IMG/VR virus record: IMGVR_UViG_3300025151_000017
Span: 52,942-116,941 of that record
Origin: a virus
DNA: 64,000 bases
Strand: one strand, 5' to 3'
Translations under genes and position numbers: made by a program
Shown: in pieces, positions 19,351 through 54,770 of the stretch
How positions within the stretch are numbered: the stretch's first letter is position 1
Layout of the letters: every line of letters starts with the position of its first letter
Notes under the pieces: generated by a model
Databases searched by the model: none
What the model was told of the DNA's origin: nothing
Seen by the model: only the letters and a program-made list of their open reading frames with translations

Positions 19351-20331
19351 ATGAGTAGTGGTAATAATGGTCCAGTGGACATTCCCCAAACTGATGAAGA
19401 ATGGGATAAATTAATCGCTGAAGGACAGCGAAATGCAGAAGAGTTAGAACAGCAAATGGGTCAAGACCCATATGTTTCTGGCTTGACAAAACCTACAGAA
19501 CCAAATCCTAGTGTAAACCCATACAGCTCAGATCCTAATGCACCTTTACCAGAAGGTGTAAAGAAAAAAGTTATGGGTATGATGATTCCTACAAGGGAGA
19601 AACAGCTTGAGGATTATGAGAAGTATAAGGAAGCAACTGCTAAAACTACTGACCAAGAAAAAGTAAGTTGGGCGATTGAACAAATCAATGCAAGTAGTTT
19701 TGAAAGCGACCTAGATGGTGCTCAAGAATGGCTAAAAGAAAACAAGCAGGAAATGGATGAGACAAAAAGACTTACCATTACTGAAGGACAAGCTGTTCAG
19801 GTACACTTTGTTAAACAAATATCTGAAGAAGAGTTTGAGAAAAAAATTATTGAAGGACTTGCTGAGATTAAACAGCTAGAAGTATCTGAGATTATGGAAG
19901 CTGGTGGTATGGATGCCCACCTCGTAAGAGATCTAGATATTGACTCACTTGATGCAATCGAACTGATTATGGATGCTGAGGATATGCTTGGTGCCCAGAT
20001 CGAAAATACTGAGATTATGTGGGTCAAAACTCTTAGAGATATCTTCGAAGTAATTAAGTATAAAATCGAGAATGATAATATGCCTTATCCTATCCCTGAT
20101 TTTGACGAAGAAGATATTATCTTTAGACCACAAACTAATAATGTTGATGGTGTAGAGGTACATCAAGGCAACTCTGCTTATAAACAATTTATGGCAGGTG
20201 CTGGGGAAAGGAAAGAAATCGAAGGAGATATCGATGCTTTCCTTGAAGAAGAGGAAGAAAGGGAACGCAAAATGCGTGAACTTTTAGATGAAGACGACGA
20301 TGACCTATCTGTAGGGCATAATAAGTCTTAA
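19351..20331 (+). CDS. Acidic protein with an internal acyl carrier protein domain
   Basis: LVRDLDIDSLDAIELIMDAEDMLGAQI...VKTLRDIFEVI. The phosphopantetheine-site Ser codon is at 19945-19947. Confidence 0.8.
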   Translation: MSSGNNGPVDIPQTDEEWDKLIAEGQRNAEELEQQMGQDPYVSGLTKPTEPNPSVNPYSSDPNAPLPEGVKKKVMGMMIPTREKQLEDYEKYKEATAKTTDQEKVSWAIEQINASSFESDLDGAQEWLKENKQEMDETKRLTITEGQAVQVHFVKQISEEEFEKKIIEGLAEIKQLEVSEIMEAGGMDAHLVRDLDIDSLDAIELIMDAEDMLGAQIENTEIMWVKTLRDIFEVIKYKIENDNMPYPIPDFDEEDIIFRPQTNNVDGVEVHQGNSAYKQFMAGAGERKEIEGDIDAFLEEEEERERKMRELLDEDDDDLSVGHNKS

Positions 20332-20386
20332 ATAGAAGTTAAAAACTAACTAAATAATAGTAAATTAATCAATGAAGGAGATTAAA

Positions 20387-20647
20387 ATGACTAATGAAAA
20401 TGAAGAAGTGGCTGTAGAGAATGAAACTCCAGAAGCTACTCAGGAAACTGAAGCACCTGTAGAACAAGAAGCTCAAGCTGAAGTACCAGCTGAAGCACCT
20501 GCCGAAGCACCTGCTGAAGAAGCACCAGAAGCAGAAGCAAAAGCTGAGGAAACTCCTGCAGAGGAGACTCCAGCAGAAGAGCCGAAAAGTTATACAGATA
20601 GACTAAGAGATGCTGCAGTAAATGAGTTAGACCAACTTATTAAGTAA
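20387..20647 (+). CDS. Low-complexity E/A/P-rich protein
   Basis: AAGGAG RBS and EAPA repeats. CTAAATA late-type motif near 20350. Confidence 0.7.
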   Translation: MTNENEEVAVENETPEATQETEAPVEQEAQAEVPAEAPAEAPAEEAPEAEAKAEETPAEETPAEEPKSYTDRLRDAAVNELDQLIK

Positions 20648-20658
20648 AGGGTACTACC

Positions 20659-22617
20659 ATGTCAGAAGTTTTAGGTTATCAAGAATTTATGGAAGCTATG
20701 GATGCAGTAAATCCAAAAGCTGTGAAGAAAAAATTCAAAGATAGAAAAGATAAAGATATCGACAACGATGGCGATGTCGATGCTTCTGACAAGTATCTTC
20801 ATAAAAGACGCAAAGCTGTTTCTAAAGCTGTGAAGTCTGATGAGTCTTATGGCTCAACAGGTAATTTTAGCAGACCTATGTCCTCTGCTGAAAGAGCAAA
20901 AGAAATGCAAAAAAAAGCTGACCAAATAAAAAAGAAAGCACAATCTGCAGTTAAAAAAGCCAAAGGTCTCACAATGGGTGAAGACATGGAAGAGGGTGCA
21001 TTTTATGGTCGTGACGACCTAGTTAAAAAGTTTAAAACTAAAAACCCAAAAGACTTTATAAGATTAAGTAAAACAGTCATGACTAAAGATGGCAAACCTG
21101 GAGGAACAGAAACTGTCAGCATGAAAAGGAAAGGCAACGAGGATAAGATTGCCAAGTACAAAAAGGATGGATATAAAGAAGTACCTATGGAATCGTACGA
21201 AGTAGAGTTCCATTCTATGCTAGACGAAAACACAGGTGTAGCAAACAAAGCTAAGAAGTCTGGTATTCCTAAAGGTATATTAATGCAGGTTTATAGAAGA
21301 GGAATGGCTGCATATGGTACAGGGCATCGTCCTGGTGCGTCACAAGCACAATGGGCAATGGCTCGTGTAAATTCTTTTATTGGTAAAGGTAAAGGAACTT
21401 GGGGTGGTGCTGATAAAGATCTCGCAGCAAAAGCAAGAGAATCTATGAAGAAAGAATCGCTTGATGAAGAAATGCCAGCATCATTTAAAGCCATGCTTAT
21501 CCAAAGAGATAAAATGAAAAAATTAGGTCAGAATATTGATGCTATTAATGCTAAAATTAAAAAAGCCAGAGCAGATGCTATGAGAATGACCTTCAATAAA
21601 GAAGAAGTAGTGATATTTGAAGATGCAAAAGATGTATTAAAAAGAATGCGTCAAACAAGAGACAACTTGAAAAGACAAGGAAACTCTGCTGGACTTGCTG
21701 CAATCGAGTTAAGAATTAAAAAGTTTAAAGACTCTATGAGTAAAGAATCAATTGATGAGAAGGGTCCTGGACTGTATGCAAATATAAATGCTAAAAGAAA
21801 ACGAGGAGAAAAAATGCGTAAAAAAGGAGAGAAGGGTGCACCTTCAGCACAAGATTTCGAAAATGCCAAAAAGACTGCTCGTGAAGAAAGAGAACTATGT
21901 CACTCTAAAGACCACGACTGTGCTACTGTCGTAGAACACATCGTATGGGGATTCGGAAAGCCAGTATATGAAAGTCACGCAATACCAACTGACGATGGCT
22001 ATGTATCATGGTATGATGTAGAATTCGAACATGGTATTGAAAGAGAAGTACCAACAGAAGATTTAAAAATTTATACTACTGAAGCACATGATATGAAAAC
22101 TTTAAACAAAGGTAAAAAGAAACCTAAGTCTAAAGATAAAGCTGAGCCAGTAAAAGAAGAAGATAAAGAACCAGCATATGTAAGAAATAAAAATCATTAC
22201 AAAGATAGTGCAAGAGTTAAATCTAATCTTGCTAAAGCTAAAGATAAAATGGCTCAATTTGGACGAGGAAGTAAGTATTCAGACTCTGAAATATCAAGAG
22301 CAGTAGATATTGCTAAGAAAATGGCAGGTGGTAATTACACAGGTGCTTACAAAAAAATCGAAGGAATTAAAAAAGGATTAGCACAACAAGGTAAAGTAAA
22401 ATATGCCTTGAAGAAAGCTGCAGAAAGTTTTGAGACCTGGAAAGGTCTATCTATATCAGAAGTAAATGATGTCCTAGTTGACATGGTTTCTTCTGCCCAA
22501 GACTACATTAAGCTGGTGGAAGATGGAGACTTAAAGTCCGTCGACGAGCCAGAAGTTGAGATAGCCAAAGGGATGCCCTTATCATTTAAACAATTTCAAT
22601 CTAAAATAGGAGACTAA
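20659..22617 (+). CDS. Charged mosaic protein, putative head internal protein
   Basis: DIDNDGDVDASD, VYRRGMAAY..GHRPGASQAQWAMARVNSF, GLYANINAKRKRG and WYDVEFEHGIE modules. Confidence 0.65.
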   Translation: MSEVLGYQEFMEAMDAVNPKAVKKKFKDRKDKDIDNDGDVDASDKYLHKRRKAVSKAVKSDESYGSTGNFSRPMSSAERAKEMQKKADQIKKKAQSAVKKAKGLTMGEDMEEGAFYGRDDLVKKFKTKNPKDFIRLSKTVMTKDGKPGGTETVSMKRKGNEDKIAKYKKDGYKEVPMESYEVEFHSMLDENTGVANKAKKSGIPKGILMQVYRRGMAAYGTGHRPGASQAQWAMARVNSFIGKGKGTWGGADKDLAAKARESMKKESLDEEMPASFKAMLIQRDKMKKLGQNIDAINAKIKKARADAMRMTFNKEEVVIFEDAKDVLKRMRQTRDNLKRQGNSAGLAAIELRIKKFKDSMSKESIDEKGPGLYANINAKRKRGEKMRKKGEKGAPSAQDFENAKKTAREERELCHSKDHDCATVVEHIVWGFGKPVYESHAIPTDDGYVSWYDVEFEHGIEREVPTEDLKIYTTEAHDMKTLNKGKKKPKSKDKAEPVKEEDKEPAYVRNKNHYKDSARVKSNLAKAKDKMAQFGRGSKYSDSEISRAVDIAKKMAGGNYTGAYKKIEGIKKGLAQQGKVKYALKKAAESFETWKGLSISEVNDVLVDMVSSAQDYIKLVEDGDLKSVDEPEVEIAKGMPLSFKQFQSKIGD

Positions 22618-22618
22618 T

Positions 22619-26895: not shown

Positions 26896-26924
26896 TTTAC
26901 TTTTAAGTTTTTTTTATATAGAAT
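26896..26924 (+). promoter_or_regulatory. Promoter TTTACT-N17-TAGAAT for the primase
   Basis: -10 box at 26919-26924 and ATG at 26931. Confidence 0.8.
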
Positions 26925-26930: not shown

Positions 26931-27938
26931 ATGATTTATGTGGATGCTAAATTTGCTAGTATGCTCGCACCTCGTGTGAGAAACTTTAAACAACAGAAAG
27001 ATTATCTGTGGAATTTCAGTTGCCCACTCTGTGGCGACTCCAAAAAGAATCAATCAAAAGCCAGAGGATATATTTATCGTAAAGAGAGTTCTCTCTTCTA
27101 CAAGTGCCACAACTGTCAAGCTGGTACAAGTCTCGGCAATCTACTAAAACAAGTTGACCAACGCATGTATAATGAGTACTCGCTAGAAAAGTTTGGCAGT
27201 ACTAATAATAAGCATGTGAATGACAAACCAGATCTAGAAATCTTCAAGACTGATACTATACCTGTGAAAAAATTAAATGCAAACCCAGTATCAGAACTTG
27301 CAGATAACCACCCAATAAAGCAGTTCTTGTTGCTTCGCCACATAAATCAAGAGCTTCATGAACATTTTTATTGGGTGGCACAGTTTAAACATTGGGTGAA
27401 TGAAAATATTGCAATGAACTTTCATAATATCAAAAAGGATGAGCCAAGACTTGTCATACCTTTTTATAATGAAGAGAAAGAATTAATTGCTATACAAGGT
27501 AGAGCATTCGGAAATGAAACACCTAAGTATTATACACTGAAAACAAATGAGAAGAACCATAAAGTATATGGTCTTGACCGAGTTGATGGTAGAAAATGGG
27601 TTTATGTGACAGAAGGTCCAATAGATTCTTTGTTCTTAGATAATGCTATCGCAGTTGCTGGTGCTGAGTTTCATTTACCACAAGTCAGACAGTTTAAAGA
27701 TAACTGTACTATCGTGTTTGATAACGAGCCAAGAAACCCTGCTCTCGTAAAACAGGTTGAGAAAATGATTAAACATGGTTTTCATGTTTGTTTATGGAAT
27801 GATAGTATAAAAGAAAAAGATATTAATGATATGATAATCGCTGGTAAAACTCCCCTGACAATACAAACATTAATAAGTCATAACACTGTACAGGGTGTAG
27901 ATGCCGAACTTAAATTTAATACATGGAGAAAATGCTAA
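26931..27938 (+). CDS. 61: DNA primase gp61
   Basis: CPLCGDS...YKCHNC zinc finger, RLVIPF, QGR, VTEGPIDS, FDNEPRN and KDIND. Confidence 0.95.
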   Translation: MIYVDAKFASMLAPRVRNFKQQKDYLWNFSCPLCGDSKKNQSKARGYIYRKESSLFYKCHNCQAGTSLGNLLKQVDQRMYNEYSLEKFGSTNNKHVNDKPDLEIFKTDTIPVKKLNANPVSELADNHPIKQFLLLRHINQELHEHFYWVAQFKHWVNENIAMNFHNIKKDEPRLVIPFYNEEKELIAIQGRAFGNETPKYYTLKTNEKNHKVYGLDRVDGRKWVYVTEGPIDSLFLDNAIAVAGAEFHLPQVRQFKDNCTIVFDNEPRNPALVKQVEKMIKHGFHVCLWNDSIKEKDINDMIIAGKTPLTIQTLISHNTVQGVDAELKFNTWRKC

Positions 27939-28462
27939 TGAGTGATGTACCAAAACTAGATCTTAGTGATGTGCCTTTTGATAGAGCCGACTTACTAAAA
28001 GACTATGTACATAATGTAGAGATTACTGAAGAACTAGTTAGAAACTTCTGTAAAATTATTCAAGACGATAACCCATTACACTTCGGAGATGAAGAAGGTA
28101 ATGTAATGCCAGGAGCATTGATGATATCATTGCTCTATTCTAATCCTGTTCCTGGATTTTTTATTAGAAATTTTAAAATTAATTTCTTAGCACCAATACA
28201 CTTTCCTACAACAGTAAGAGTATATCGTAAAGTATGGAAAGCTACTGACCGAAAAGCAGGTGAACTCGGAGATGGTATCTTCGCTATCAAAGATCTAAGC
28301 GATGGTATTATAAAAGCCAAAGGCAGTGGGCAAGTATTTAGACCGACCAAAAGATTAATGGAAACATTTGAACAAGGTGTTGACAGAAACTTTTTTAAAC
28401 AAAGCGACCCAAACTTTGAAAGGAAGCACTGGGTCAATCCCGAAGGGAAGGAGATAAAATGA
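27938..28462 (+). CDS. MaoC-like hot-dog (R)-hydratase/dehydratase
   Basis: F..I..DDNPLH...PGAL and F.API.F. Confidence 0.7.
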   Translation: MSDVPKLDLSDVPFDRADLLKDYVHNVEITEELVRNFCKIIQDDNPLHFGDEEGNVMPGALMISLLYSNPVPGFFIRNFKINFLAPIHFPTTVRVYRKVWKATDRKAGELGDGIFAIKDLSDGIIKAKGSGQVFRPTKRLMETFEQGVDRNFFKQSDPNFERKHWVNPEGKEIK

Positions 28463-28908: not shown

Positions 28909-29245
28909 GGAAATATGGGACGAACAGGAGTCCTTTGAACCGAAGAAGCCACATAGGTGTATCACTAACTTTATAAATGGTGAGTGGATAGATCGTGTAT
29001 ATGGAGATCTCGGTAAGAAGAGACTCTTACAGGGTGAGTTCGGGAAAGAATATAAAGGTAAACTTGAGGAAAAGAAATATCGCAGATACAAAACAGACTT
29101 TTTAGGAAAAGCTGTAAGTGTTTATTACCAAAGATATACCCATACTGCTGATGGTAGATGGTTTGATAATAGTGGTATGCCTTGTGCAAAACCACATCAC
29201 GACCCAAAACCAAAGAATGCTGATGACTTGGAGGATGATGAGTAG
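28883..29245 (+). CDS. Hypothetical protein
   Basis: GAGG RBS; TADGRWFDNSGMP. Confidence 0.6.
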   Translation: MMMKKTRIEEIWDEQESFEPKKPHRCITNFINGEWIDRVYGDLGKKRLLQGEFGKEYKGKLEEKKYRRYKTDFLGKAVSVYYQRYTHTADGRWFDNSGMPCAKPHHDPKPKNADDLEDDE

Positions 29246-29799
29246 TGGTAGAAGAACGACTCAGAAAAATAGATGGTAAATCTTTATGGTATTTTGACGA
29301 TATCTTTAGTTTCGAAGAACGAGAAAGACTATATAGTTATTGCTTAAACAAAAAGTATTCGCTCTCTGGCTCAGATGTACAAAGACTAGAGACTAAAGGC
29401 GATTATAATTTGTATTGTAATCTCTCTCCCACTGATGTGGATGATATGGGGATAGAGAAATTAGAAAACTATTCCCACATCAAACATCACCTAGATGACT
29501 ATACTATAACTCAGGCAAGAATTAATCTGAGCACAATCCAGGATAAAAATCGTTTTCATTGCGATACTGGAGCCGAGCATAATTTAACAATGCTATATTA
29601 TCCCAACATGGAATGGGAAAAGTCTTGGGGTGGTCAAACACTTTTTACAAACTTAACCAACGATACTCTCGAATGGGTGTCGTTCTACATTCCAGGGAGG
29701 ATAATTTTATTCGATGGCTCAATACCCCACTCAATCAACCCACCAACAATCCACAGCCCAACGCACAGATTTTCAGTCGTCATTCAATATGGAAAGTAA
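29245..29799 (+). CDS. 2OG-Fe(II) oxygenase (prolyl-4-hydroxylase-like)
   Basis: FHCD, LYYPN.EW...WGG.T, PGRIILFDGSIPH and R.S. Confidence 0.85.
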   Translation: MVEERLRKIDGKSLWYFDDIFSFEERERLYSYCLNKKYSLSGSDVQRLETKGDYNLYCNLSPTDVDDMGIEKLENYSHIKHHLDDYTITQARINLSTIQDKNRFHCDTGAEHNLTMLYYPNMEWEKSWGGQTLFTNLTNDTLEWVSFYIPGRIILFDGSIPHSINPPTIHSPTHRFSVVIQYGK

Positions 29800-31606: not shown

Positions 31607-31610
31607 AAAA

Positions 31611-41283: not shown

Positions 41284-41336
41284 TTTATTTACAGAAGATC
41301 CAAGCATTATGCTGTTTTTGATGATAACTTTTTAAT

Positions 41337-43268: not shown

Positions 43269-43276
43269 ATAATACT

Positions 43277-43708
43277 GTGGCTTATTCTAAAGAAGTCGTA
43301 GAAAGATTTGAAAGTGTTCTACGCAACCCAGCAAAACATTCGGTTGGTAAATTCAATCCGAAGGATGCTGATATAGCCACAGGTATGGTAGGAGCTCCAT
43401 CATGTGGTGATGTAATGAAACTCCAACTAAAACTTGACCAAGCTAACGATCCTGATAAAGCCAAGATATTAGATGTTAAGTTTAAAACTTATGGGTGTGG
43501 CTCTGCTATCGCATCCTCTACTATGTTCGTTGAAATGCTTACAGGTAAAACTATAGAAGAAGCAAAAAATATAACCAACGATGAAATAGCTGAAGCATTG
43601 GATTTACCACCAATTAAAATACACTGTTCAGTACTAGCAGAAGAAGGAATTAAAAAGGCGATACAAGATTGGTATGATAAAAAAAGTTCTAACACACTGG
43701 ACGAGTAG
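43277..43708 (+). CDS. iscU: Fe-S cluster scaffold IscU
   Basis: GAPSCGDVMKLQ, FKTYGCGSAIASS and LPPIKIHCSVLAE. CTAAATA at 43265-43271. Confidence 0.95.
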   Translation: MAYSKEVVERFESVLRNPAKHSVGKFNPKDADIATGMVGAPSCGDVMKLQLKLDQANDPDKAKILDVKFKTYGCGSAIASSTMFVEMLTGKTIEEAKNITNDEIAEALDLPPIKIHCSVLAEEGIKKAIQDWYDKKSSNTLDE

Positions 43709-46079: not shown

Positions 46080-46340
46080 ATGGCTAATCGTAAAATGACG
46101 CAGGAAGCGAAGTTGCTTCGTGCTTTACAAAATGGCAGTGAGTTTACTGCTAATCAAATCGTGTCTAGATTCGGTATTAAGAATCCATATGCGGTTGTGC
46201 AAAACCTTAAATTGAAAGGTTATGCAATCTATCTGAACAAAAGAACTAATTCTGTTGGTCAGACCTATATGAAGTATCGTCTTGGTACTCCAACTAGGGC
46301 AGTTGTTGCTGCTGGATACAGAGCACTCATTGGTGCGTAA
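46080..46340 (+). CDS. Small winged-helix DNA-binding protein
   Basis: T..QI..RFGI.NP.A....L...GY.IY and YRLGTP. AAGGAGG RBS. Confidence 0.7.
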   Translation: MANRKMTQEAKLLRALQNGSEFTANQIVSRFGIKNPYAVVQNLKLKGYAIYLNKRTNSVGQTYMKYRLGTPTRAVVAAGYRALIGA

Positions 46341-46363
46341 TCATTTCGTCCTGATATGATTAT

Positions 46364-46403
46364 AAAGGGGAGTCGGTCATCAGCACCACTCCCCTTTACT
46401 TTT
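46364..46403 (+). terminator. Rho-independent terminator overlapping the next promoter's -35 box
   Basis: AAAGGGGAGT...ACTCCCCTTT followed by ACTTTT. Confidence 0.75.
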
Positions 46404-46423
46404 AAGTTTTTTTGTAATAGAAT
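46395..46423 (+). promoter_or_regulatory. Promoter TTTACT-N17-TAGAAT
   Basis: -10 box at 46418-46423 and ATG at 46430. Confidence 0.8.
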
Positions 46424-46429: not shown

Positions 46430-46612
46430 ATGGCGATATTTTTGACCCAGTATGATGTAAAGCTGAGTGATGGCACTAGAAAGAGTTTCGCAGGTCCTGA
46501 CATTGATTGTTTGGACTTAGATGAAGCTAAAGACATTGCCAAGGACATGAGTCCTACACTATATGTTTGCGGAGAGTGGGTAGAAAATGTTATGCCTTAC
46601 CGAAACCAATAA
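46430..46612 (+). CDS. Hypothetical protein
   Basis: 60 aa ORF immediately after a promoter. Confidence 0.6.
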   Translation: MAIFLTQYDVKLSDGTRKSFAGPDIDCLDLDEAKDIAKDMSPTLYVCGEWVENVMPYRNQ

Positions 46613-46622
46613 TGAGGACGAT

Positions 46623-46949
46623 ATGACTGATGATTATGATGACAGAAAGTTTGATGATGCATTGATTACTCAGTGGAGAAACCAGTTGAGTGATGCTATA
46701 TGTACTGTCAAATTTACTAAAGCTGACGACTCCGAAAGGGAAATGAAATGTACTACTAATATAAGGTACATCCCTGAAGAGAAAATGCCTAAGAGTAGTG
46801 ATGAAGGAAATAATGACCGAAAGTTGTTTATTGTTTTTGATACTGAAAAGGGTGAGTGGAGATCTTTCAGGTTTGAAAGAGTTTTAACTTTTATGTATCC
46901 AGGCAACGCACCTTCTAACTATCCACCATCAACTAGAGTGTTCCCATGA
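46623..46949 (+). CDS. WYL_2/Sm-like SH3-barrel protein
   Basis: V.FTK.D...R.M.CT and VFD.EK.EWRSFR. GAGG RBS. Confidence 0.75.
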   Translation: MTDDYDDRKFDDALITQWRNQLSDAICTVKFTKADDSEREMKCTTNIRYIPEEKMPKSSDEGNNDRKLFIVFDTEKGEWRSFRFERVLTFMYPGNAPSNYPPSTRVFP

Positions 46950-47836
46950 TTTTAATTGATTATAGTCAAGTCGCAATCTCTAATATCATGTCTTTCAAAC
47001 AAGACCTGATACAAGCTGAGATGTCTGGCGACAGTAAAGGTGCTGAAGATATTATTCGCCACTGTATTTTATCAAGTCTTAAGATGTATAAGAAAAGATT
47101 CGGTAAAGAGTATGGCGACCTTGTCGTATGTTGTGACAGCTATAATTACTGGAGAAAAGATTATCATCCCTTCTATAAATCCAAACGAGCAGGGTCTCGT
47201 GAAGAAGATGATATGCCTTGGGATGTTCTATTTACCATAATGAGTAATGTAAGAGATGAGATTGCTGAGCACTCTCCTTACAAAGTTATGCGTGTCGAAA
47301 GATGTGAAGCTGATGATGTTATAGGTGTATTATGTGAACACACCAATGAGTTTGGTAATCACGAACCTGTAATGATTGTTTCAAGTGATAAAGATTTTAA
47401 ACAGCTTCAAAAATTTGACAATGTAAAACAGTTCTCTCCTATGCAGAAGAAGTTTGTCACTTTTGCTAAAGGAGAAACTGTTAAAGAGTTTACTACTATG
47501 CACATCGTAAAAGGTGATACTGGCGATGGTGTACCAAATATATTTTCCCCTGATGATATATTTCATCAGGATGGTGTAAGGCAGAAACCTGTCACCAAGA
47601 AAATACTCGAGGAGTTTTATACCTATGGCAGAGATGCTTGTAAAACTGACCAAGAAAGAGAACGATGGGATCGTAATGAAACTTGTATATCCTTATCGCA
47701 TATACCAGAAGAATATAAAAAAGCGATCTCAGATGAATACCTAAATAATAAAGCGAATGGCGATAAGATGTCACTGTATAATTACTTGATGGAGAATCGC
47801 TGTAATTTATTATTAGAAGAAATAGAGGATTTTTAA
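46946..47836 (+). CDS. rnh: T4-type RNase H / 5'-3' exonuclease
   Basis: MILIDYSQ, YWRK...YK..R, EADD, SSDKDF.QL and GD.GDGVPN. Confidence 0.93.
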   Translation: MILIDYSQVAISNIMSFKQDLIQAEMSGDSKGAEDIIRHCILSSLKMYKKRFGKEYGDLVVCCDSYNYWRKDYHPFYKSKRAGSREEDDMPWDVLFTIMSNVRDEIAEHSPYKVMRVERCEADDVIGVLCEHTNEFGNHEPVMIVSSDKDFKQLQKFDNVKQFSPMQKKFVTFAKGETVKEFTTMHIVKGDTGDGVPNIFSPDDIFHQDGVRQKPVTKKILEEFYTYGRDACKTDQERERWDRNETCISLSHIPEEYKKAISDEYLNNKANGDKMSLYNYLMENRCNLLLEEIEDF

Positions 47837-47837
47837 T

Positions 47838-48353
47838 ATGGCTGTGAAGTATATCGATAAGATTCTTCAGGATATAAATGACACTGGAGATGTTGAAAAA
47901 TATAAAGATGATGCACTAGTAAAAATTATTTTTGAAAACGCATTTAATCCTGCTAACAAGTGGATATTGCCAGAGGGCAACCCTCCTTATAAGCCAAGCG
48001 AGGAAGACGATATGGCACCCACTAATATGTATCTTGAAGCAAGACGAATAGGATATATTTTCAAGCGAGAAGATCTTACTCCTGTAAAAAGAGAAGGTTT
48101 ATTTATTGAGATGCTTGAAAGTGTATCACATGCAGAAGCAAAGATTCTTTTAGCTATCAAAGACCAAAGGCTGGATAAGATCTATCCCAAGATTACTCCA
48201 GAACTTGCCAGCAAGGTAGCTGATATTGATACAAAAGAAGCTGATAAGATGATTGCTGAAGCAAAGATTGCTGAAGAGAAAGCTAAAAAACCACACCAGA
48301 GTAAAACGCAAAAGCGAGATTCGTCTGGTAAATTTACTAAGAAGGCAAAGTAA
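47838..48353 (+). CDS. Conserved T4-like hypothetical protein
   Basis: LPEG.PPY, RE.LFI.MLE...EA..L...KD. Confidence 0.7.
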   Translation: MAVKYIDKILQDINDTGDVEKYKDDALVKIIFENAFNPANKWILPEGNPPYKPSEEDDMAPTNMYLEARRIGYIFKREDLTPVKREGLFIEMLESVSHAEAKILLAIKDQRLDKIYPKITPELASKVADIDTKEADKMIAEAKIAEEKAKKPHQSKTQKRDSSGKFTKKAK

Positions 48354-48619
48354 TGACAAAACCACTAGAAGAAAGATTGGTGACTCTAAAAGATCTAGAG
48401 AATAATATTGAGTATGCTGGTGAAGTTCGTGTATGTACTGAAGATAGATTAGTTGTAGCATATAGAGATGCAACTACTGCTGAAAAGAAAGAGGTACAGT
48501 TTGATGTATATGATGTTCTAAATGACAAATGGTCTAGAGAAGATTGGGAGTGTACTTACCCAAACATAAATAAACTAAACGCAACTGATGTCACTGTTCG
48601 AGTAAATAATCATAGATGA
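48353..48619 (+). CDS. Hypothetical protein
   Basis: TAATG coupling. Confidence 0.6.
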   Translation: MTKPLEERLVTLKDLENNIEYAGEVRVCTEDRLVVAYRDATTAEKKEVQFDVYDVLNDKWSREDWECTYPNINKLNATDVTVRVNNHR

Positions 48620-49377
48620 AAATAGCTGTCGTTATGGGAGTGGCGAATAATCGCTCCATCGCATGGGGTATCGCCAACAAGTTGATAGATGAAGGATACA
48701 CTTGTGTCTTTACCTATCCAAACGATTCCATAAAAAAGAAAATTACTAGACTATCACCTATGGCTCATGTCATCAAGTGTGATGTATCCGATCCTATGGA
48801 AGTTAGAAATGCTTTCATACAAATTAAACAACATTATCCTAAGATAGATTATGTTGTACATGCTATGAGTATGACAGACTTTCGTGAGTTAGATGGTAAG
48901 ATGAAGGATATAAGTAGAGAAAACTTTTTAGAAAGTTTAAATGTTGGTTGCTACTCACTGATTGATATAGTAAGAAACAGTTTACCTATGATGAATAAAG
49001 GTGGTGCATATTTGACACTTAGTTATGATGGCTCTCGTAGAGTTTACGACAACTATAATGTAATGGGTCTAGTAAAAGCTAGTTTAGAAAGTGCTACTAG
49101 ATACTTGGCTAGAGACTGTGCCGAAGTTGGTGTACGAATAAATTGTATATCGGCAGGAGTAATTAAAACATCAAGTGCTATGGCAGTAAAAGGTAGCAAG
49201 GGTATGTTAAAATGGGCAGAGGGAGTGAACCCAATGAAAAGAAATATCACTCTAGAAGATATAGCAGGGAGTGCTTATTACTTCCTATCTGATTTATCAT
49301 CAGGTGTGACAGGTGAAACACACTATGTAGATTGCGGATATAATATAATTGGAGCACCGAGTATAGATGACATCTAA
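48616..49377 (+). CDS. fabI: Enoyl-ACP reductase
   Basis: GVANNRSIAWGIA, CDV, YNVMGLVKASLES (YxxMxxxK), RIN.ISAG.IKT and VTGE.HYVD.G. Confidence 0.93.
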   Translation: MKIAVVMGVANNRSIAWGIANKLIDEGYTCVFTYPNDSIKKKITRLSPMAHVIKCDVSDPMEVRNAFIQIKQHYPKIDYVVHAMSMTDFRELDGKMKDISRENFLESLNVGCYSLIDIVRNSLPMMNKGGAYLTLSYDGSRRVYDNYNVMGLVKASLESATRYLARDCAEVGVRINCISAGVIKTSSAMAVKGSKGMLKWAEGVNPMKRNITLEDIAGSAYYFLSDLSSGVTGETHYVDCGYNIIGAPSIDDI

Positions 49378-49795
49378 AGTAATTAATCGCAAGTTTGCGA
49401 CAATGGACAATAAGAAAATTAAAATGCAACTCAATGGGTTTGTATTGAATACTCATATCGACCATGTTGATGAACTATTTGACGAAGGGATTGTAAGATA
49501 CTTTGTTAATCATGTACTATATCAACTTGATGTACAAAGACAGATACACTTCGAAGAACAACTAAAAAATCCTGATAACCGACCTATCCCAGATGGGCAT
49601 GCTAACCAAGCAAGTATTGAAGAGCATAAAGTATATTGTGAAGTGGTATTGCAAGATCCTTCTAAACCTGATTGGTGGGAAGCTGATACTCGAGGAATCG
49701 CTTGGACTGTACATGAAGCTGGTCAAATGAACTTAAAAGACATAGACAACATCAGGTATGATATATATAGTATAGAGGACAAAAAAAATGATTAA
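49367..49795 (+). CDS. Hypothetical protein
   Basis: Overlapping ORF within the operon. Confidence 0.6.
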   Translation: MTSKVINRKFATMDNKKIKMQLNGFVLNTHIDHVDELFDEGIVRYFVNHVLYQLDVQRQIHFEEQLKNPDNRPIPDGHANQASIEEHKVYCEVVLQDPSKPDWWEADTRGIAWTVHEAGQMNLKDIDNIRYDIYSIEDKKND

Positions 49796-50015
49796 AAGAT
49801 ACAATAGGACTGAAAGATCTGAACTAATTGTAGAATCTGTAATTAAAAAATATGATGGTGAGATTGCTGAAGCAAATGCAAACTTACAGATTTATATTTC
49901 TAATTCAGTAGGTATCGGTGAACACGCAGAAGTGATAGCTGAAATCGATAAACTATTAGAGAAGATTGCATCTGCCGAAGAAAAAAAAGCAATGATAAAG
50001 AAATATACAGCATGA
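49788..50015 (+). CDS. Small conserved helical protein
   Basis: A.ANL..Y..NSVGIGEH. Confidence 0.65.
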   Translation: MIKRYNRTERSELIVESVIKKYDGEIAEANANLQIYISNSVGIGEHAEVIAEIDKLLEKIASAEEKKAMIKKYTA

Positions 50016-50380
50016 CACCAAGAGCATCGATTATAGGACATGGTATTGATATGGTTCTCGAGTCTCGTTTTGAGAGACGAAGAGAGAAGTGGTCAGAAAC
50101 TATCCTGTCCCCAAAAGAGAAAGAGATTTATAATGGACTGCTAGATAGGCAGAAGTGTAATTATCTAGCAAAGGTATGGGTGTTAAAAGAAGCATTTGTG
50201 AAAGCAAGGCAACACCCAATCGTTGGTATGAAAGAAGCTAGAATGTTTTCTTATATCTCACCGAACTTAGTACCGAGTAAAGAGATAGCAGAAAAATTAA
50301 AAGGAGTAAACATACATTGTTCGCTGTCGGATTTCAAGGGTTGCGTAATTGGCTCAGTAATTTTAGAGAAAGCCATCTAA
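50012..50380 (+). CDS. acpS: Holo-ACP synthase (4'-phosphopantetheinyl transferase)
   Basis: GHGIDMV...RF, LS..E, LA..W..KEAFVKA and H.SLS. Confidence 0.85.
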   Translation: MTPRASIIGHGIDMVLESRFERRREKWSETILSPKEKEIYNGLLDRQKCNYLAKVWVLKEAFVKARQHPIVGMKEARMFSYISPNLVPSKEIAEKLKGVNIHCSLSDFKGCVIGSVILEKAI

Positions 50381-51261
50381 CAACCTATAAAATTAATTTT
50401 CGTATCAGGTATTGGTGGTGGACCCAGCTTTGCCTGTTAGGAATAATTGTATTTGGTCGCTGGGACTTGATACCCTATGTTCTCGCATGGTGGTTTTTTG
50501 GAGCGATGGCTATAACAATATATGCTCATAGAGGATTATCACATAATAGTATAACAGTAAAATGGAAATGGCTCGAACACTTATTCTGCTCTCTTTGTAT
50601 AGTAAGCAACATCGGAAGTCCACTCGCTTGGGCAGTAATACACCGAATGCATCACGCATATCTAGACGAGGAGAGAGATCCACACAGTCCACATCAAATT
50701 GGTTTCTTAAGATCCTTAACCCATAGATGGGATGTACCTTTTGAAAATGTGCCACTAAGATTTACAAGAGGATTACTTAGAAACGAAACTGCTAGATGGT
50801 ATCACGATAATAGTTTTAAATCTATGTGTATTACTATCTTTGGTGCATACTTACTAATGTTATTATGGGGTATTATTGTAGAGACTTATACTAATGGAAT
50901 ATTCGTAATGCTTCCAGAACTATGGTATTATCTGACTAACTTCTATTGGTACGATGGTCCATATCTTTATATTCAAGAGTGGGGACTTAACTTTGCATGG
51001 GCAGCATTTGCTGGAGCAGGTCTTGGGCAATGGTCTATGGGTATTACTAACGCATGGCAACATAGTGATAAACGAGGTAAACAATACATTCGTAATGTTC
51101 CATGGTATCTAAGTTTTATAAACTGGGGAGAAGGCAGTCATGATTATCATCATACAAACCCTAGAGATTACAGTTTCGGAAAAGGATTAAACGATCCTAC
51201 ACAATATTTTATACTTTTTTTGGAAAAGATTGGAGCAGTGAGTATAAATAGAAATATATAA
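50317..51261 (+). CDS. Membrane fatty acid desaturase (delta-9/DesC-like)
   Basis: His boxes HRGLSH, HRMHH and GEGSHDYHH, plus DPHSP. Start codon uncertain. Confidence 0.9.
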   Translation: MFAVGFQGLRNWLSNFRESHLTTYKINFRIRYWWWTQLCLLGIIVFGRWDLIPYVLAWWFFGAMAITIYAHRGLSHNSITVKWKWLEHLFCSLCIVSNIGSPLAWAVIHRMHHAYLDEERDPHSPHQIGFLRSLTHRWDVPFENVPLRFTRGLLRNETARWYHDNSFKSMCITIFGAYLLMLLWGIIVETYTNGIFVMLPELWYYLTNFYWYDGPYLYIQEWGLNFAWAAFAGAGLGQWSMGITNAWQHSDKRGKQYIRNVPWYLSFINWGEGSHDYHHTNPRDYSFGKGLNDPTQYFILFLEKIGAVSINRNI

Positions 51262-51430
51262 TGTTCCAGTTTACGAAGTGGATGATGGTACACAGAAGAG
51301 AGAGCAAGCAAGTACCCCAATCATCTGAGTTGGTATCTTTCGGTACTAAACTCCCCAATCCGATGGGTCACTTCGATGCAGTTTTGGTAGTTTCTGCTCA
51401 ACAAAAAACTACCACTTGATTGTAAACTTC
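51261..51430 (+). ncRNA. Candidate structured RNA under a late promoter
   Basis: TATAAATA 51243-51250. Pairings 51268-74/51422-28, 51274-80/51369-75, 51327-53 (hairpin) and 51385-93/51406-14. Confidence 0.45.
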
Positions 51431-51446
51431 CAACTTGAAAGGAAAT

Positions 51447-51725
51447 ATGATGGAAGATATGGTTTTGGAAATGAATACTGATTTGGTTGATTATATTATT
51501 ACCCTTACATTCTCATTTCTATTTTTTGTAGTAGGTTGGGCAATGCCACGAGGTAATGCCCTGAAAAAAATTCAAGGTAAAATCTTTAAAAGGATTTACA
51601 ACTGGACAGGTGTGTTTATGGTGAAGCTACATAACTTCTTTGCGGATAGTGAGTTTCATCTAGAGCATGTCTGGCAGGATACTAAGGACTATGTCAGAAA
51701 GAAATATGGCTATAAGAAAAAATAA
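51447..51725 (+). CDS. Small membrane protein
   Basis: AAAGGA RBS and one TM. Confidence 0.6.
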   Translation: MMEDMVLEMNTDLVDYIITLTFSFLFFVVGWAMPRGNALKKIQGKIFKRIYNWTGVFMVKLHNFFADSEFHLEHVWQDTKDYVRKKYGYKKK

Positions 51726-52516
51726 TGTTTAGACCACCTTATCATGTAGAGTTAAAAGATGTACCATTTCCTTTATCTAAGAAGGAACTGGAGAAACAGA
51801 TTGCACGATACGATAAGGAGCATGGTGATTGGGCAAAGCGAAAAGAAGAAACTATACCTGAGATATGGCATACTGATAAAACATCAGCAGCATATGGTGC
51901 GTATGGTTTTGTAGCAAATCTTTGGATAAATCATGAAAGATTTACACCTGAGTTTCAGCTATGGTTAGATAAACATTTAATAAAGCCAGCACTGGTCGGA
52001 ACTATATTCGTTTCCCCACCTGGATATTCACTGCGTCCACACATAGACCATACTGATTATAGTCATAGATATTATTGGCGACTTAACTTTCCTGTTGGTT
52101 TAGAAGACAACGAAGATAAGTGTATGACTTTCTGGGATCCTCGTGATTGTGTAATGGAAAGACGAAATAAAATTAACCACCCAAAGATGCCACATACAAA
52201 CTCAATGAGTTTGATTGAGTTTGATGATGCTACACGACCAAAGGTTAAAAAACATTTTGATACACAACTAGGTGCATGTTCAATTGTATGTGTAGGTGGA
52301 CCTGACTGTGCTCATAGTATGATATATGATGGCGAAAAAGAATCCTACACTATTTCTATAGCAATTGTAGATAAATTAACTAATCATAATTTTGAAAAAT
52401 GGGAAGCTATAGAAAAAAGATTAGGGCAATATTTTGTAAAAGAAGATAAACCATCTCCCATAAAAGCATGGGTGAAAGAGGATGGAGAATTTGGATGGAG
52501 TAGAGATGTTACATGA
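51725..52516 (+). CDS. Putative cupin/2OG-Fe(II) oxygenase
   Basis: PPGY.L.PHID, RLNFP, MTFWD and VG....HS. Paralogue of the next gene. Confidence 0.55.
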   Translation: MFRPPYHVELKDVPFPLSKKELEKQIARYDKEHGDWAKRKEETIPEIWHTDKTSAAYGAYGFVANLWINHERFTPEFQLWLDKHLIKPALVGTIFVSPPGYSLRPHIDHTDYSHRYYWRLNFPVGLEDNEDKCMTFWDPRDCVMERRNKINHPKMPHTNSMSLIEFDDATRPKVKKHFDTQLGACSIVCVGGPDCAHSMIYDGEKESYTISIAIVDKLTNHNFEKWEAIEKRLGQYFVKEDKPSPIKAWVKEDGEFGWSRDVT

Positions 52517-53534
52517 ACCATATTACATGTCTTTGAAAGACACACTCGAACGACCTATTACTAATGAAGACTTACATGAGATATTAACACCACTAAGAGA
52601 GAATCTTAATCGTGGCAATATATGTGTTAGGAATAGTTATTTTCGTATTGAAATGATGAAGCAGTGGAGGGACATGATGCTTATGCCTTATGGTTGTAGT
52701 ATCTTTCGTGCCTTACCACATTATAGAATGTCACCACATGTTGATAGTCCGAGTCGTCCTAACTGGGGCAGAGTGACTTGGGCATATGAAGAAGTAAGTC
52801 CTGGCATATATGAACCATGGCAACCAGATGAAAACGAGTCATCTATTATGACTTACTGGGATGCTAGTGAAGCAGAGGAATGGACTTCTGATATGTGTAA
52901 TGTATCAGGCGATCCTGATAGAGATCTAACTTATGTAATCCCTAGAGAAAAAAGATTGCCAGGATGGGGAACTGGGTTGAAAGAAGAACTAAGTTTTCAA
53001 ATGTCATATCCTGGATTAATTAATGTAGGACAACCACATTCAGTATGGCATACTTCTGACAAACCTCGTATCGCTATATCTATTGAGTTTATGAATAGGA
53101 AAGGTGAGTTTGAAGGATTTGACAAACTGGCTAAAACCTTACAAAGATTTGGTTATGCTGATTTAGAAAGGGATGACCGAACTAAAAAATATGGCAGTAG
53201 AATGACGAATAGATTTACTTGCCTATATAATAAAGAGACAAATGAAGATGTTCCTGAAACTGTTTTTGATGAGAAAGCACTCAAAGAAAAAATAGAAAAA
53301 CATCTAGGTAGTAATGCTGCTGGTATGTCTTGGGAAGAAGCTGAAGAAGTTTATCTCAAGGAGAGATTACTCGAGAAGGGTGCACCTCCTGGGAAAATGT
53401 TAGAAGCACAAGGTCTAGATTATGACCAGTTCTTAGAAAAGAAAGGTGTCGGATTTAGATATGTTATAGGCAATGTTATGCAGAGCCTAGTGAACATCGA
53501 GGATGAATATAGGGCAAAATACCCTAACAAATAA
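52506..53534 (+). CDS. Putative cupin/2OG-Fe(II) oxygenase
   Basis: PHY.M.PHVD, MTYWD, LINVGQPHSV and RIAIS. Confidence 0.6.
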   Translation: MLHEPYYMSLKDTLERPITNEDLHEILTPLRENLNRGNICVRNSYFRIEMMKQWRDMMLMPYGCSIFRALPHYRMSPHVDSPSRPNWGRVTWAYEEVSPGIYEPWQPDENESSIMTYWDASEAEEWTSDMCNVSGDPDRDLTYVIPREKRLPGWGTGLKEELSFQMSYPGLINVGQPHSVWHTSDKPRIAISIEFMNRKGEFEGFDKLAKTLQRFGYADLERDDRTKKYGSRMTNRFTCLYNKETNEDVPETVFDEKALKEKIEKHLGSNAAGMSWEEAEEVYLKERLLEKGAPPGKMLEAQGLDYDQFLEKKGVGFRYVIGNVMQSLVNIEDEYRAKYPNK

Positions 53535-53546
53535 ATGGAGTAGATT

Positions 53547-54770
53547 ATGAAACCTGTACATGTAGTTGGCTATGGTATGTCCGATGCTCTCGGCATAAAC
53601 CCCACCGAATGTTATCAAAAGATGCTAGATCCTAACGATTACTCTCGTGAGATCCCTGGCATGAAAAAACAATGCGAAGAGATATTTCACTTAATCATAC
53701 ATCGTGGTGCGATGCATGACGAAGATCGTATTATCATGCCTGATGGTTTTGATAAAAAGATGTGGCGAAGTATGACTAATGCTCAGAAGATGATGAGTAA
53801 TACCACAGAACAAGCTATGCAAATGGCAGGTATAGAACGCAGTCCTAATGTAGCAGTTCTTGCTAGTACAGTTTCAAATGATACTGAAGGAATCGATGTG
53901 TACTTTGAATATATTAAGTACATGAAAAGAGGTAATGCTCGTAGAGCAGTAAATAGGATTCCTGATATGGGATGTATGCATATTACATCTTACTATGGTT
54001 TCAAAGGTTTATCTACAGCTACTTTTGCATCTTGTGCTACAGGTATGGTCAATATTGATTATGCTATGCGACTTGTAGATGAATACGATTATGTTATTTG
54101 TACTGCTGGTGATTGTGCTAACTTCCCAATGGGCATTAAATACTTTGCTTGTTTAGGAGCATTAGCAAATTACTCTTTACCATTTGACGATAGGAGACAA
54201 GGTTTTCTTATGGGTGATGGTGGTGCTTGTATGATTTTACAATCAGAAGAAAAGATGAAAGAGTTTGGTAGTAAATCTTATGCTAAGTTGTATCAATGTG
54301 GTATGGCAAGTGACGCAGTAGATATGGTAAACCCAGAGGGAACTGGTACTCGTACTGCTATGCTTGATGCACTTGACCATTATGGTACTGGTGCTGTAGA
54401 TTATGTTTGTACTCATGGTACAAGTACAATAGCAGGAGATCCTATCGAGTATGAAGCAGTATCGGAAGTATTGCCAGGAACTAAAATGTGGGCACCGAAA
54501 AGTAAAATCGGTCACACACTTGCAGCATCTGGTATCCTAGAAGGTTGCTATGCTATTGAGAGTATGAGAAATGGTGTAGTACCACATATTCAAAACTTAA
54601 AAGAATGTTCACTTGATGTACATGGTACTTTAGTTCGAGAGAATGAAGAGTTTACTATGCATAACAGAAAGCGAAGTATGCTAAATAATTCATTCGGCTT
54701 TGGTGGTAAATGTATGTCACAAGTTATAGAAGTAGAATTGGAGCAACATGAAAGAGCAAACCCAGAATAA
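53547..54770 (+). CDS. Beta-ketoacyl-ACP synthase (FabF/FabB type)
   Basis: Cys-His-His triad: ASCATG, THGTST..GD..E and KSKIGHT. Also PFD.RR.GF.MG.G and NSFGFGG. Confidence 0.92.
   Translation: MKPVHVVGYGMSDALGINPTECYQKMLDPNDYSREIPGMKKQCEEIFHLIIHRGAMHDEDRIIMPDGFDKKMWRSMTNAQKMMSNTTEQAMQMAGIERSPNVAVLASTVSNDTEGIDVYFEYIKYMKRGNARRAVNRIPDMGCMHITSYYGFKGLSTATFASCATGMVNIDYAMRLVDEYDYVICTAGDCANFPMGIKYFACLGALANYSLPFDDRRQGFLMGDGGACMILQSEEKMKEFGSKSYAKLYQCGMASDAVDMVNPEGTGTRTAMLDALDHYGTGAVDYVCTHGTSTIAGDPIEYEAVSEVLPGTKMWAPKSKIGHTLAASGILEGCYAIESMRNGVVPHIQNLKECSLDVHGTLVRENEEFTMHNRKRSMLNNSFGFGGKCMSQVIEVELEQHERANPE

Follow-up and report, generated by a model that had tools for sequence, protein, structure and literature searches.

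The locus considered here raises the question of whether the fatty-acid genes carried by a marine phage feed into the lipid synthesis of its host, constitute a pathway of the phage's own, or share no function at all. The window, i.e. the whole stretch of 64,000 nucleotides that was analysed, is the final 64 kb of a 116,941-base IMG/VR virus record (IMGVR_UViG_3300025151_000017, record positions 52,942 to 116,941), for which the CheckV completeness is 65%. A preliminary description, made from the nucleotide letters, had named six genes dispersed across the window, encoding an acyl carrier protein (ACP) domain, a MaoC-type dehydratase, the enoyl-ACP reductase FabI, the holo-ACP synthase AcpS, a membrane desaturase and a ketosynthase, and had read them as a near-complete fatty-acid or polyketide elongation cycle. 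The interpretation favoured here, at a probability of about 0.5, is that they are auxiliary metabolic genes, which from their sequences would reinforce and retune the type II fatty-acid synthesis and the membrane lipids of the host. The genes concerned, numbered from the first letter of the window, are as follows.

19351..20331, + strand: 326-aa protein with a central ACP domain (Pfam PP-binding)
27923..28462, + strand: 179-aa MaoC-like hot-dog protein, overlapping the end of the primase gene (assigned by an intermediate homologue and a motif)
48616..49377, + strand: FabI-type enoyl-ACP reductase, 253 aa (adh_short_C2, PF13561, 240.5 bits)
50012..50380, + strand: AcpS-type holo-ACP synthase (4'-phosphopantetheinyl transferase), 122 aa (Pfam ACPS)
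50317..51261, + strand: membrane fatty-acid desaturase of the acyl-CoA/acyl-lipid (delta-9-like) type (FA_desaturase, PF00487)
51725..52516, + strand: 263-aa Fe(II)/2-oxoglutarate (2OG)-oxygenase-like protein (His106-x-Asp108...His197 triad, AF2 fold)
52482..53534, + strand: 350-aa distant paralogue of the preceding protein, with the same triad and a C-terminal extension of ~130 aa
53547..54770, + strand: FabF/FabB-like elongating beta-ketoacyl-ACP synthase, 407 aa (Pfam, NCBIfam, alignment with E. coli FabF)

All six named open reading frames (ORFs) proved to be real and intact, on the + strand and with the starts first reported for them, and five of them pass Pfam cut-offs; the oxygenase-like pair between the desaturase and the ketosynthase was absent from the earlier gene list. 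Ketosynthases with a Cys-His-His triad condense acyl-ACP with malonyl-ACP, FabI reduces enoyl-ACP, AcpS makes holo-ACP, and MaoC-type hot-dog enzymes dehydrate (R)-3-hydroxyacyl thioesters. In the favoured interpretation the phage ketosynthase, FabI and probably the hot-dog dehydratase would act on acyl-ACP together with host FabD, FabG, FabH and acyltransferases, with malonyl-ACP, ketoreductase, initiation and acyl transfer all supplied by the host synthase, such that chain elongation could be kept up or raised after host shut-off. AcpS would keep the carrier in its holo form, this carrier being the phage ACP-domain protein and perhaps also the host ACP. The desaturase would add cis double bonds to finished membrane lipids or acyl-CoA, using oxygen, and the two oxygenases may act as hydroxylases, on lipid or on something else. 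Such dependence on the host agrees with the lack of a phage-encoded carrier in most phages that bear this ketosynthase.

Ketosynthase and enoyl-ACP reductase

The ketosynthase matched both Pfam domains of its family, ketoacyl-synt (PF00109) at 82.8 bits and Ketoacyl-synt_C (PF02801) at 74.5 bits, against cut-offs of 20.8. Cys163, His290 and His323, along with Lys318, which precedes the second His of the triad, aligned with E. coli FabF and were invariant in 25 family members, in agreement with the intact triad originally reported. Against the FabF equivalog model TIGR03150 the protein scored 177.3 bits, below the cut-off of 493.75, and it was 30-34% identical to both ketosynthases (FabF and FabB) in each of four Pelagibacteraceae genomes. 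Because identity to these cellular enzymes is this low, the ketosynthase appears to belong to an old phage lineage rather than to be a recent capture.

The clade to which it belongs is large and phage-borne, with at least 811 metagenomic proteins at E<=1e-20 and 129 viral stretches; the best 120 of these proteins were 46-95% identical to it and lay on contigs of up to 328 kb. The accompanying genes were counted by Pfam searches in the 50 longest of 80 kept ketosynthase-bearing viral records, each of at least 20 kb. PP-binding was present in three of the 50, ACPS in four and a strong FabI in four, and none of the three ketosynthase-bearing records that were at least 90% complete had an ACP, AcpS or FabI. 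FA_desaturase was present in 14 of the 50, an undercount given that the desaturases of the freshwater group described below are candidates that do not reach the scoring threshold. At the level of the immediate neighbourhood, the desaturase was the commonest companion of the ketosynthase (35 of 81 loci, by clustering), and a recognisable ACP was found within 10 kb in a single one of the 81. Since a phage carrier is so seldom present, the ketosynthase of this clade must normally use the ACP of the host.

A distant phage contig (L099), with a ketosynthase 40% identical to that of the window, holds five lipid-type genes within 4 kb and is, judging by gene content, an independent instance of the same association.

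L099, 9992-13953, some genes on opposite strands: ketosynthase; 269-aa protein; PF01575 MaoC protein; PF05118 Asp/Asn hydroxylase-like protein; desaturase

The assignment of FabI was consistent across methods. The 12 best NCBIfam models were all FabI models, the top one at 261.5 bits and under its equivalog cut-off of 446, and the stretch with the Tyr-x6-Lys motif aligned with the solved FabI 4nk4 (E 9.5e-67). Its nearest cellular relatives, at 42-49% identity, were mostly Pelagibacteraceae. In a quick maximum-likelihood tree, three phage FabI rows fell with 37 Pelagibacter-type rows (34 labelled Pelagibacteraceae or Pelagibacterales), and this group separated, with an SH-aLRT of 99, from 43 others, of which 41 carry Alphaproteobacteria labels. 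The grouping suggests a SAR11-like source for the phage FabI.

Steps of the cycle that were not found

When the entire 116,941-base contig was searched in six frames, no FabD (PF00698), FabA/Z or PlsC-type acyltransferase was found, and FabI was the only short-chain dehydrogenase/reductase (SDR); Pfam scans of 60 ORFs of the window likewise gave no FabD, FabA/Z, second SDR or PlsC-type acyltransferase. The records of six relatives, which extend ~15 kb past one end of the contig and ~20 kb past the other, had no FabD, and FabI, seen in four of the six, was their only SDR. Contig and relatives together are estimated from coordinates to span ~150 of ~180 kb, and within this span the phage cannot run an elongation cycle alone, because the ketoreductase and FabD steps were not found. 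The lack of both ketoreductase and malonyl transacylase, first noted for the window, thereby extends to the entire contig (65% complete), and the near-complete elongation cycle that had been proposed is reduced to a firm ketosynthase and enoyl reductase plus a probable dehydratase, with no ketoreductase, FabD, FabA/Z or acyltransferase. The polyketide alternative is likewise abandoned, given a single PF00109 match in 116,941 bases and no chain-length-factor partner; a type II polyketide synthase is ruled out by this single ketosynthase and the lack of a chain-length-factor pair. All the named enzymes scored below NCBIfam equivalog cut-offs, mostly far below, indicating divergent proteins and not housekeeping copies.

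Carrier-domain protein and holo-ACP synthase

The ACP domain lies within a longer fusion protein. PP-binding matched residues 186-231 at 24.1 bits (cut-off 20.8), and residues ~159-239 (nt ~19825-20067) could be aligned with a solved ACP over the full length. Ser199, at the start of helix II in an Asp-Ser-Leu motif, aligned with the ACP attachment serine, and this serine and both its flanks were invariant in the five orthologues aligned. Ten NCBIfam ACP models matched, every one below its cut-off. The protein is not of the free-standing type of ~75-100 aa, having conserved extensions of ~158 aa at the N-terminus and ~87 aa at the C-terminus and an acidic tail, and its family is narrow, comprising 36 proteins that are all at least 73% identical. 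Its gene adjoins the gene of a 1,289-aa protein and a head-protein-like gene.

Two very large proteins flank the ACP fusion, one of 1,289 aa (15113-18982) and one of 652 aa (20659-22617). The N-terminal 275 residues of the former match PHROG families labelled cytidyltransferase, a piece of the latter matches the same PHROG, and DUF5824 is the sole significant Pfam domain in the two.

AcpS matched ACPS (PF01648) at 41.9 bits against a cut-off of 25 and TIGR00556 at 44.8, just under the cut-off of 45.35, and its N-terminal Gly-x-Asp and Lys-Glu-Ala-x2-Lys blocks were both aligned with the solved AcpS 1fte. A small gene lies directly 5' of acpS.

49788..50015, + strand: 75-aa helical protein, conserved in six of nine close loci

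This ORF was considered as a hidden ACP and ruled out, as it has no Asp-Ser-Leu motif and no PP-binding match at E<=10.

Probable MaoC-like hot-dog protein

The gene at 27923 was the least certain of the six. Its product had no Pfam match at E<=0.01, with just 4HBT at E 0.021, and a six-frame search for PF01575 gave no match at E<=10. The assignment is carried by an intermediate: the L099 homologue, which sits next to that phage's ketosynthase, passes PF01575 (28.6 bits against 27), and the window protein is 28% identical to it (E 1e-12; by profile hidden Markov model, E 1e-9). All 10 of the relatives compared share an invariant Asp-x4-His motif, whose Asp and His presumably form the catalytic pair of the hydratase-2 motif, as in PhaJ. 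When the family was compared by hhalign with five cellular PF01575 proteins, the motif aligned and P was 5.8e-4, against 0.16 and 0.38 for two controls. Atlas clusters matching the protein were mostly MaoC-type (features 0.92, structure TM 0.59-0.65). The AF2 model was poor (pLDDT 49.5), built from a shallow alignment of six close relatives found by word-index search, and its top Foldseek matches, mostly MaoC-type (HTD2, PhaJ and HadB-type dehydratases) with some hot-dog thioesterases, lend weak support; the family profile against PDB sequences gave nothing below E 0.87. Taken together, the chances are about three in four that this is a MaoC-like hot-dog protein, and a role as (R)-3-hydroxyacyl-thioester dehydratase or hydratase is probable from its motif and homologues. 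The MaoC dehydratase initially described is thus MaoC-like by motif and by its PF01575 intermediate, although no direct Pfam match stands behind it. MaoC-type proteins serve as the dehydratase in fatty-acid synthases that lack FabZ, and sequence does not distinguish, for such proteins, the hydratase from the dehydratase direction or an ACP from a CoA substrate.

Desaturase and oxygenase-like pair

The desaturase scored 34.0 bits against the FA_desaturase cut-off of 29.7, and its translation shows three His boxes, the first two and the third of which align with acyl-CoA desaturase 1 in a weak match. Its longest ORF begins with TTG and overlaps acpS by 64 nt, making the true start unsure. The protein is 92-94% identical in six of nine close loci and 63-68% identical in two more. 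The substrates of membrane His-box desaturases are acyl-lipids or acyl-CoA, not ACP-bound chains, and the reaction requires oxygen and an electron donor. Because it is of this acyl-CoA/acyl-lipid type, the desaturase is not a step of a carrier-bound cycle, contrary to the preliminary description, which had counted desaturation among the steps covered.

Redox genes lie downstream of the cluster, namely a secreted class I cytochrome c (56551-56988), an alternative oxidase (AOX, 223.8 bits; 58566-59159), an AurF-like di-iron protein (59280-60368) and a peroxiredoxin (63071-63580).

Neither member of the oxygenase-like pair had a Pfam match, nor did any of 10 sampled family members, and the family profile searched against PDB sequences gave chance matches to a glutamate receptor at E 0.035 and worse. 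The His-x-Asp...His triad was invariant in 91 aligned sequences. The AF2 model of the 263-aa protein (pLDDT 83.7, pTM 0.84) is a double-stranded beta-helix for which the top Foldseek matches were nearly all 2OG oxygenases, at probabilities of 0.96-1.0. In VIA-align nearly all 50 listed entries were 2OG oxygenases by title; the best, a proline 3-hydroxylase at Z 9.7, lies slightly above the tool's background of 7-8. An Arg after the distal His, which we take to be the binder of the 2-oxoglutarate C5 carboxylate, is nearly invariant in the family, being kept by the 350-aa paralogue and replaced by Ser in the 263-aa protein. The family has 701 representatives at E<=0.001, mostly proteins of ~190 aa with no family name, and occurs near the ketosynthase in 26 of 81 loci. 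The 269-aa neighbour of the L099 ketosynthase was tried as a further member and rejected (hhalign probability 0.4, not significant).

A heterodimer of the two paralogues with one altered subunit is conceivable, and the heterodimeric 2OG oxygenase 7vbq is among the fold matches. Further oxygenase genes occur on either side of the gene for the large subunit of ribonucleotide reductase (RNR), at 29245-29799 (2OG-FeII_Oxy_3) and 31575-32528 (Asp_Arg_Hydrox), the latter overlapping the end of the 630-aa RNR large-subunit ORF.

Gene order, promoter motif and relatives

The distance from the start of FabI to the end of the ketosynthase is 6,155 bases, matching the 6.2 kb earlier given for the last four of the six genes. 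The motif TTTACT-N17-TAGAAT, with an extended shared left half, has eight exact + strand copies in the window. At up to one mismatch there were 11 matches against 1.34 expected, a number reached in none of 100 shuffles, and the motif probably represents the phage's early or middle promoter class.

1155, 8249, 11176, 12853, 26896, 45996, 46395 and 55460, + strand: exact motif copies, each either immediately 5' of a gene or within an interval separating long ORFs
26896..26924, + strand: promoter-like motif heading the primase gene, with the hot-dog gene following in that array
46395..46423, + strand: promoter-like motif heading the packed array 46430-55429, with the next copy at 55460

The array at 46430-55429 reads RNase H, DUF6433, FabI, a 142-aa protein, the 75-aa protein, AcpS, desaturase, two small ORFs, the oxygenase pair, ketosynthase and a MazG-like gene. 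No copy of the motif lies near the gene of the ACP fusion, which is placed between CTAAATA boxes at 15057 and 20350. Judged from motifs alone, the enzyme genes would be of the replication-period class and the carrier gene perhaps of a late one. Two of the small genes of the array are conserved among relatives, and the 142-aa protein had no Pfam, NCBIfam or PHROG match.

49367..49795, + strand: 142-aa protein of the conserved backbone, with 36-63% identical homologues in the marine and freshwater groups
51435..51725, + strand: 96-aa protein with one hydrophobic stretch, 62-74% identical in eight of nine close loci

Nine close viral contigs, with ketosynthases 87-89% identical to that of the window, have the cluster in the same order wherever the contig reaches. 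By tblastn, FabI was present in five of the nine, AcpS in six, and the desaturase and both oxygenases in eight, the missing cases being cut by contig ends. The co-occurrence across relatives that the preliminary description had proposed as a check was borne out, as FabI, AcpS and the ACP-domain and hot-dog proteins were present wherever the contig of a close relative extends to the place. A freshwater-type group of eight contigs (ketosynthase 57% identical), including a complete 144,834-base genome with terminal repeats, shares the order RNase H, DUF6433, 142-aa gene, desaturase, three or four oxygenase paralogues and ketosynthase. No FabI, AcpS, ACP or hot-dog protein was found in the freshwater-type contigs, the complete genome included, and among the relatives compared the marine lineage alone yielded FabI, AcpS, the ACP fusion and the hot-dog protein. 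The lipid set may accordingly have grown by accretion, with a desaturase/oxygenase/ketosynthase core shared with the freshwater relatives and the other genes added in the marine lineage.

Identity of the phage and integrity of the assembly

The nearest cultured phages by primase were Methylophilales phage Melnitz (46.9%) and the Pelagibacter phages Mosig (41.5%) and HTVC008M (41.2%). The window carries curli genes (csgF/csgG), and a curli operon is mentioned for pelagimyophages in the pertinent passage of PMC7029224. On these sequence affinities the phage is an uncultured marine T4-like myovirus of the pelagimyophage/Melnitz kind. Megablast of window positions 48000-55000 against 50,697 GenBank phage records gave no match, as did searches of the same records with the ACP fusion and the hot-dog protein; tblastn matches of the ketosynthase and FabI were all below 60% identity with no pelagimyophage among them, and many of the matched records look, by eye, host-derived or fragmentary. 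At least 0.92 of the sampled words of the cluster were present in 14 DNA runs from seven studies (2014-2025), of which eight runs are possibly sources of this very DNA. The lineage is not rare, nearly identical DNA being present in the marine metagenomes of seven or more studies over these years.

In RNA libraries (four runs, three studies) there are contigs that match parts of the FabI, acpS/desaturase, ketosynthase and both oxygenase genes, in most cases at 95-100% identity. Since such libraries can contain DNA, this is a weak hint of transcription of the cluster, and stretches that lack coverage carry no information. Depth in the RNA-library contigs of two to four runs was 20-80 at 46091-46370 and 55846-56343, against ~1-10 elsewhere, contig depth being unable to rank genes; these pieces fall on an 86-aa ORF (46080-46340) and an HD-domain gene (56000-56545).

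The possibility that host DNA was misassembled onto phage DNA, or that a cellular contig was misfiled as viral, would find some encouragement in the Pelagibacteraceae-like relatives of FabI, but these are at most 49% identical. GC content is 0.33-0.40 throughout the window with no step at the lipid cluster, and the long ORFs lie nearly all on one strand (+), tightly packed among T4-type genes that include primase (26931), RNR (29714 and 34448), RNase H (46946), ThyX, PhoH and lysozyme. The gene order is identical in the nine close viral contigs, the cluster's words recur at a fraction of at least 0.92 across the 14 DNA runs, and the phage promoter motif stands on both sides of the cluster. An artefact is effectively refuted. 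The earlier judgement that misassembly is unlikely, based on the interleaving of T4 core genes (now placed at 26931, 29714/34448 and 46946), is strengthened by the even GC content, the synteny in other viral contigs and the recurrence of the cluster's words in those DNA runs.

Elsewhere in the window, the best barrel-domain stretch of the RNR large-subunit ORF covers profile positions 2-337 of 523, and a SegE-type GIY-YIG homing endonuclease (36420-36839, 133.1 bits) follows the gene of the RNR small subunit at a distance of ~1 kb, the interval containing a single 263-aa ORF. A row at 39254-45503 comprises csgF, csgG, a curlin-repeat protein, a FecR-domain protein, IscU (NifU_N) and a CHASE2 nucleotide cyclase.

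Alternative explanations

Several of the above observations weigh against an auxiliary reinforcement of host lipid synthesis. The ketosynthase is only 30-34% identical to SAR11 FabF and FabB, and the divergence of the enzymes from equivalogs means that they may use substrates other than those of housekeeping enzymes. Given the very long branch of the phage FabI (3.67) in what is a quick tree, the donor is not firm. With the contig 65% complete, and the complete freshwater genome representing a group that has neither FabI nor AcpS, the unseen part of this lineage may hold a ketoreductase or transacylase. The ACP-domain gene is 30 kb from the enzymes, amid large late-type or structural genes, and a private, highly unusual ACP fusion with its own AcpS would be hard to explain by mere boosting of the host. 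Finally, the ACP fusion and AcpS occur together in all four records that span both sites (~31 kb apart), which fits a private pathway better.

In such a private, carrier-bound pathway AcpS would prime Ser199 of the ACP fusion, the ketosynthase, hot-dog dehydratase and FabI would extend the chain with ketoreductase and malonyl groups borrowed from the host, and the oxygenases and desaturase would tailor it, which would yield not bulk membrane lipid but a special acyl group carried by a lipid, by a molecule of the lipopolysaccharide type, by a protein or by a small molecule. This is considered rather unlikely, and a version in which the ACP fusion is maybe virion-associated and the pathway gives an unsaturated or hydroxylated acyl product that is no normal host lipid is more doubtful still. 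The gain of AcpS and of a peculiar, conserved ACP fusion is better explained in this way. The fusion is strongly conserved over its whole length, extensions included, within a narrow family, suggesting a specialised partner surface. Besides the joint occurrence with AcpS in the four spanning records, the ACP fusion, AcpS, FabI and hot-dog protein are found together in the marine lineage and are jointly absent from the freshwater group and its complete genome, although co-occurrence drawn from two related lineages amounts to roughly a single observation. Every enzyme is divergent from housekeeping equivalogs, and oxygenase genes stand between desaturase and ketosynthase in two phage groups whose ketosynthases are 57% identical. 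However, no ketoreductase, transacylase, thioesterase or acyltransferase was found for loading or release of a product, the ACP gene lies outside the cluster with nearby motifs pointing to a different promoter class, the desaturase is of a type that, from family knowledge, is inactive on ACP-bound chains, and most phages with this ketosynthase are without an ACP of their own. The dedicated acyl product suggested in the preliminary description is the less likely reading, since records of the clade rarely hold an ACP (3/50) or AcpS (4/50).

It is also conceivable, if improbable, that there is no common pathway, and that these are separate auxiliary genes in a variable region, with FabI, ketosynthase and desaturase each acting alone on host metabolism, oxygenases that have non-lipid substrates, and an ACP-domain protein that is structural or otherwise not a carrier. 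The window does hold many unrelated auxiliary genes and, at 29245-29799 and 31575-32528, other 2OG-type oxygenases with no relation to lipids; the oxygenase family, with its 701 representatives, is near the ketosynthase in just 26 of the 81 loci; the ACP gene stands beside a head-protein-like gene and large proteins; and FabI and AcpS are inserted at two separate points of the conserved gene order. Yet the additions, which are separately placed, are all proteins of a single biochemical pathway (FabI, AcpS, hot-dog protein and ACP fusion), AcpS would be pointless with no carrier to prime and Ser199 is invariant in the five orthologues, and the unrelated phage L099 also sets a MaoC protein, a hydroxylase and a desaturase beside its ketosynthase. 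A supplement to host lipid synthesis, the preferred interpretation, would account for a ketosynthase clade that usually travels without a carrier.

The surface ocean is dominated by SAR11- and OM43-type bacteria, whose phages account for much of the turnover of marine carbon. Should a common phage lineage have enzymes sufficient for elongation, carrier priming, desaturation and oxygenation, infection may alter both the amount and the kind of lipid released on lysis. A private pathway, if real, would be one by which a phage makes a lipid or acylated protein of its own within the most abundant bacteria of the ocean. In either case the phage offers compact and divergent FabF, FabI and AcpS proteins and an odd ACP fusion for biochemistry, and a test case for whether phage metabolic genes top up host pathways or build private ones.

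Comparison with known systems

Compared with a bacterial type II fatty-acid synthase, the phage has a ketosynthase, an enoyl reductase, a carrier domain and an AcpS of the same families with the catalytic residues. It differs in that no FabG, FabD, FabH-type or FabA/Z protein was found in the searches described above, in that the dehydratase candidate is MaoC-type and not FabZ-type, and in that the carrier is a 326-aa fusion. The hot-dog protein shares Asp-x4-His with MaoC-type dehydratases such as mitochondrial HTD2, PhaJ and mycobacterial HadAB/HadBD, from which its top structural matches came (3ir3 at 24% identity, 5cpg, 1iq6 and 8pwz, for a model of pLDDT 49.5), and is set apart from them by a C-terminal tail of ~40 aa and the lack of a direct Pfam match. 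The oxygenase pair has in common with Fe(II)/2OG dioxygenases (proline 3-hydroxylase 1e5r, KanJ, AspH) the double-stranded beta-helix and the His-x-Asp...His triad, whereas the phage paralogues are 5-16% identical to the solved enzymes, belong to no Pfam family, include one without the Arg, and are linked to lipid by gene position only. LpxO and OlsC are lipid hydroxylases of the AspH family. NodF/NodE-type pairs, in which a dedicated ACP and ketosynthase borrow the remaining steps from the housekeeping synthase, are likened to the phage genes by concept only, as the phage carrier is a long fusion and is not adjacent to the ketosynthase.

The literature search found no paper uniting phosphopantetheinyl transferase, acyl carrier protein, bacteriophage and auxiliary metabolic genes, and the accessible parts of the literature on auxiliary metabolic fabF and fabI did not include this gene combination on one phage genome. 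The portions consulted list fabF, fabG, fabZ and desC among the viral auxiliary metabolic genes of marine viromes (PMC10653327) and fabF, fabG and fabI each on one viral operational taxonomic unit in lake sediment (PMC12783922). Cyanophage lipid desaturases have been described (Roitman et al., ISME J, PMC5776448, seen in excerpt), likewise as a membrane desaturase carried as an auxiliary gene by marine T4-like phages; the host group is a different one and, in that excerpt, the desaturase is reported alone, whereas here it overlaps acpS and is clustered with the ketosynthase.

The closest known system is that of the freshwater pelagimyophages of group PMP-D, for which the relevant passage of Zaragoza-Solas et al. 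2020 (PMC7029224) gives fabF, a stearoyl-CoA desaturase and speH and calls the lipid genes unique to the freshwater group. The statement in the preliminary description that single lipid genes are already known in phages is therefore well founded, fabF and a desaturase being published there. The freshwater ketosynthase is of the same clade (57% identical) and the desaturase of the same family (38-39%), the order after RNase H is the same, with oxygenase paralogues between desaturase and ketosynthase, and an unannotated 147-aa ORF next door in the freshwater-type contigs is taken, by eye only, for the paper's speH. The phage studied here differs in belonging to a marine, curli-bearing lineage and in having FabI, AcpS, an ACP fusion and a MaoC-like protein as well, four additions that searches of the complete freshwater genome did not return. 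Relative to that passage, what is new is thus the marine lineage with these four added genes, together with the fold of the oxygenases, the pattern of accretion and the count indicating that the ketosynthase usually travels without a carrier.

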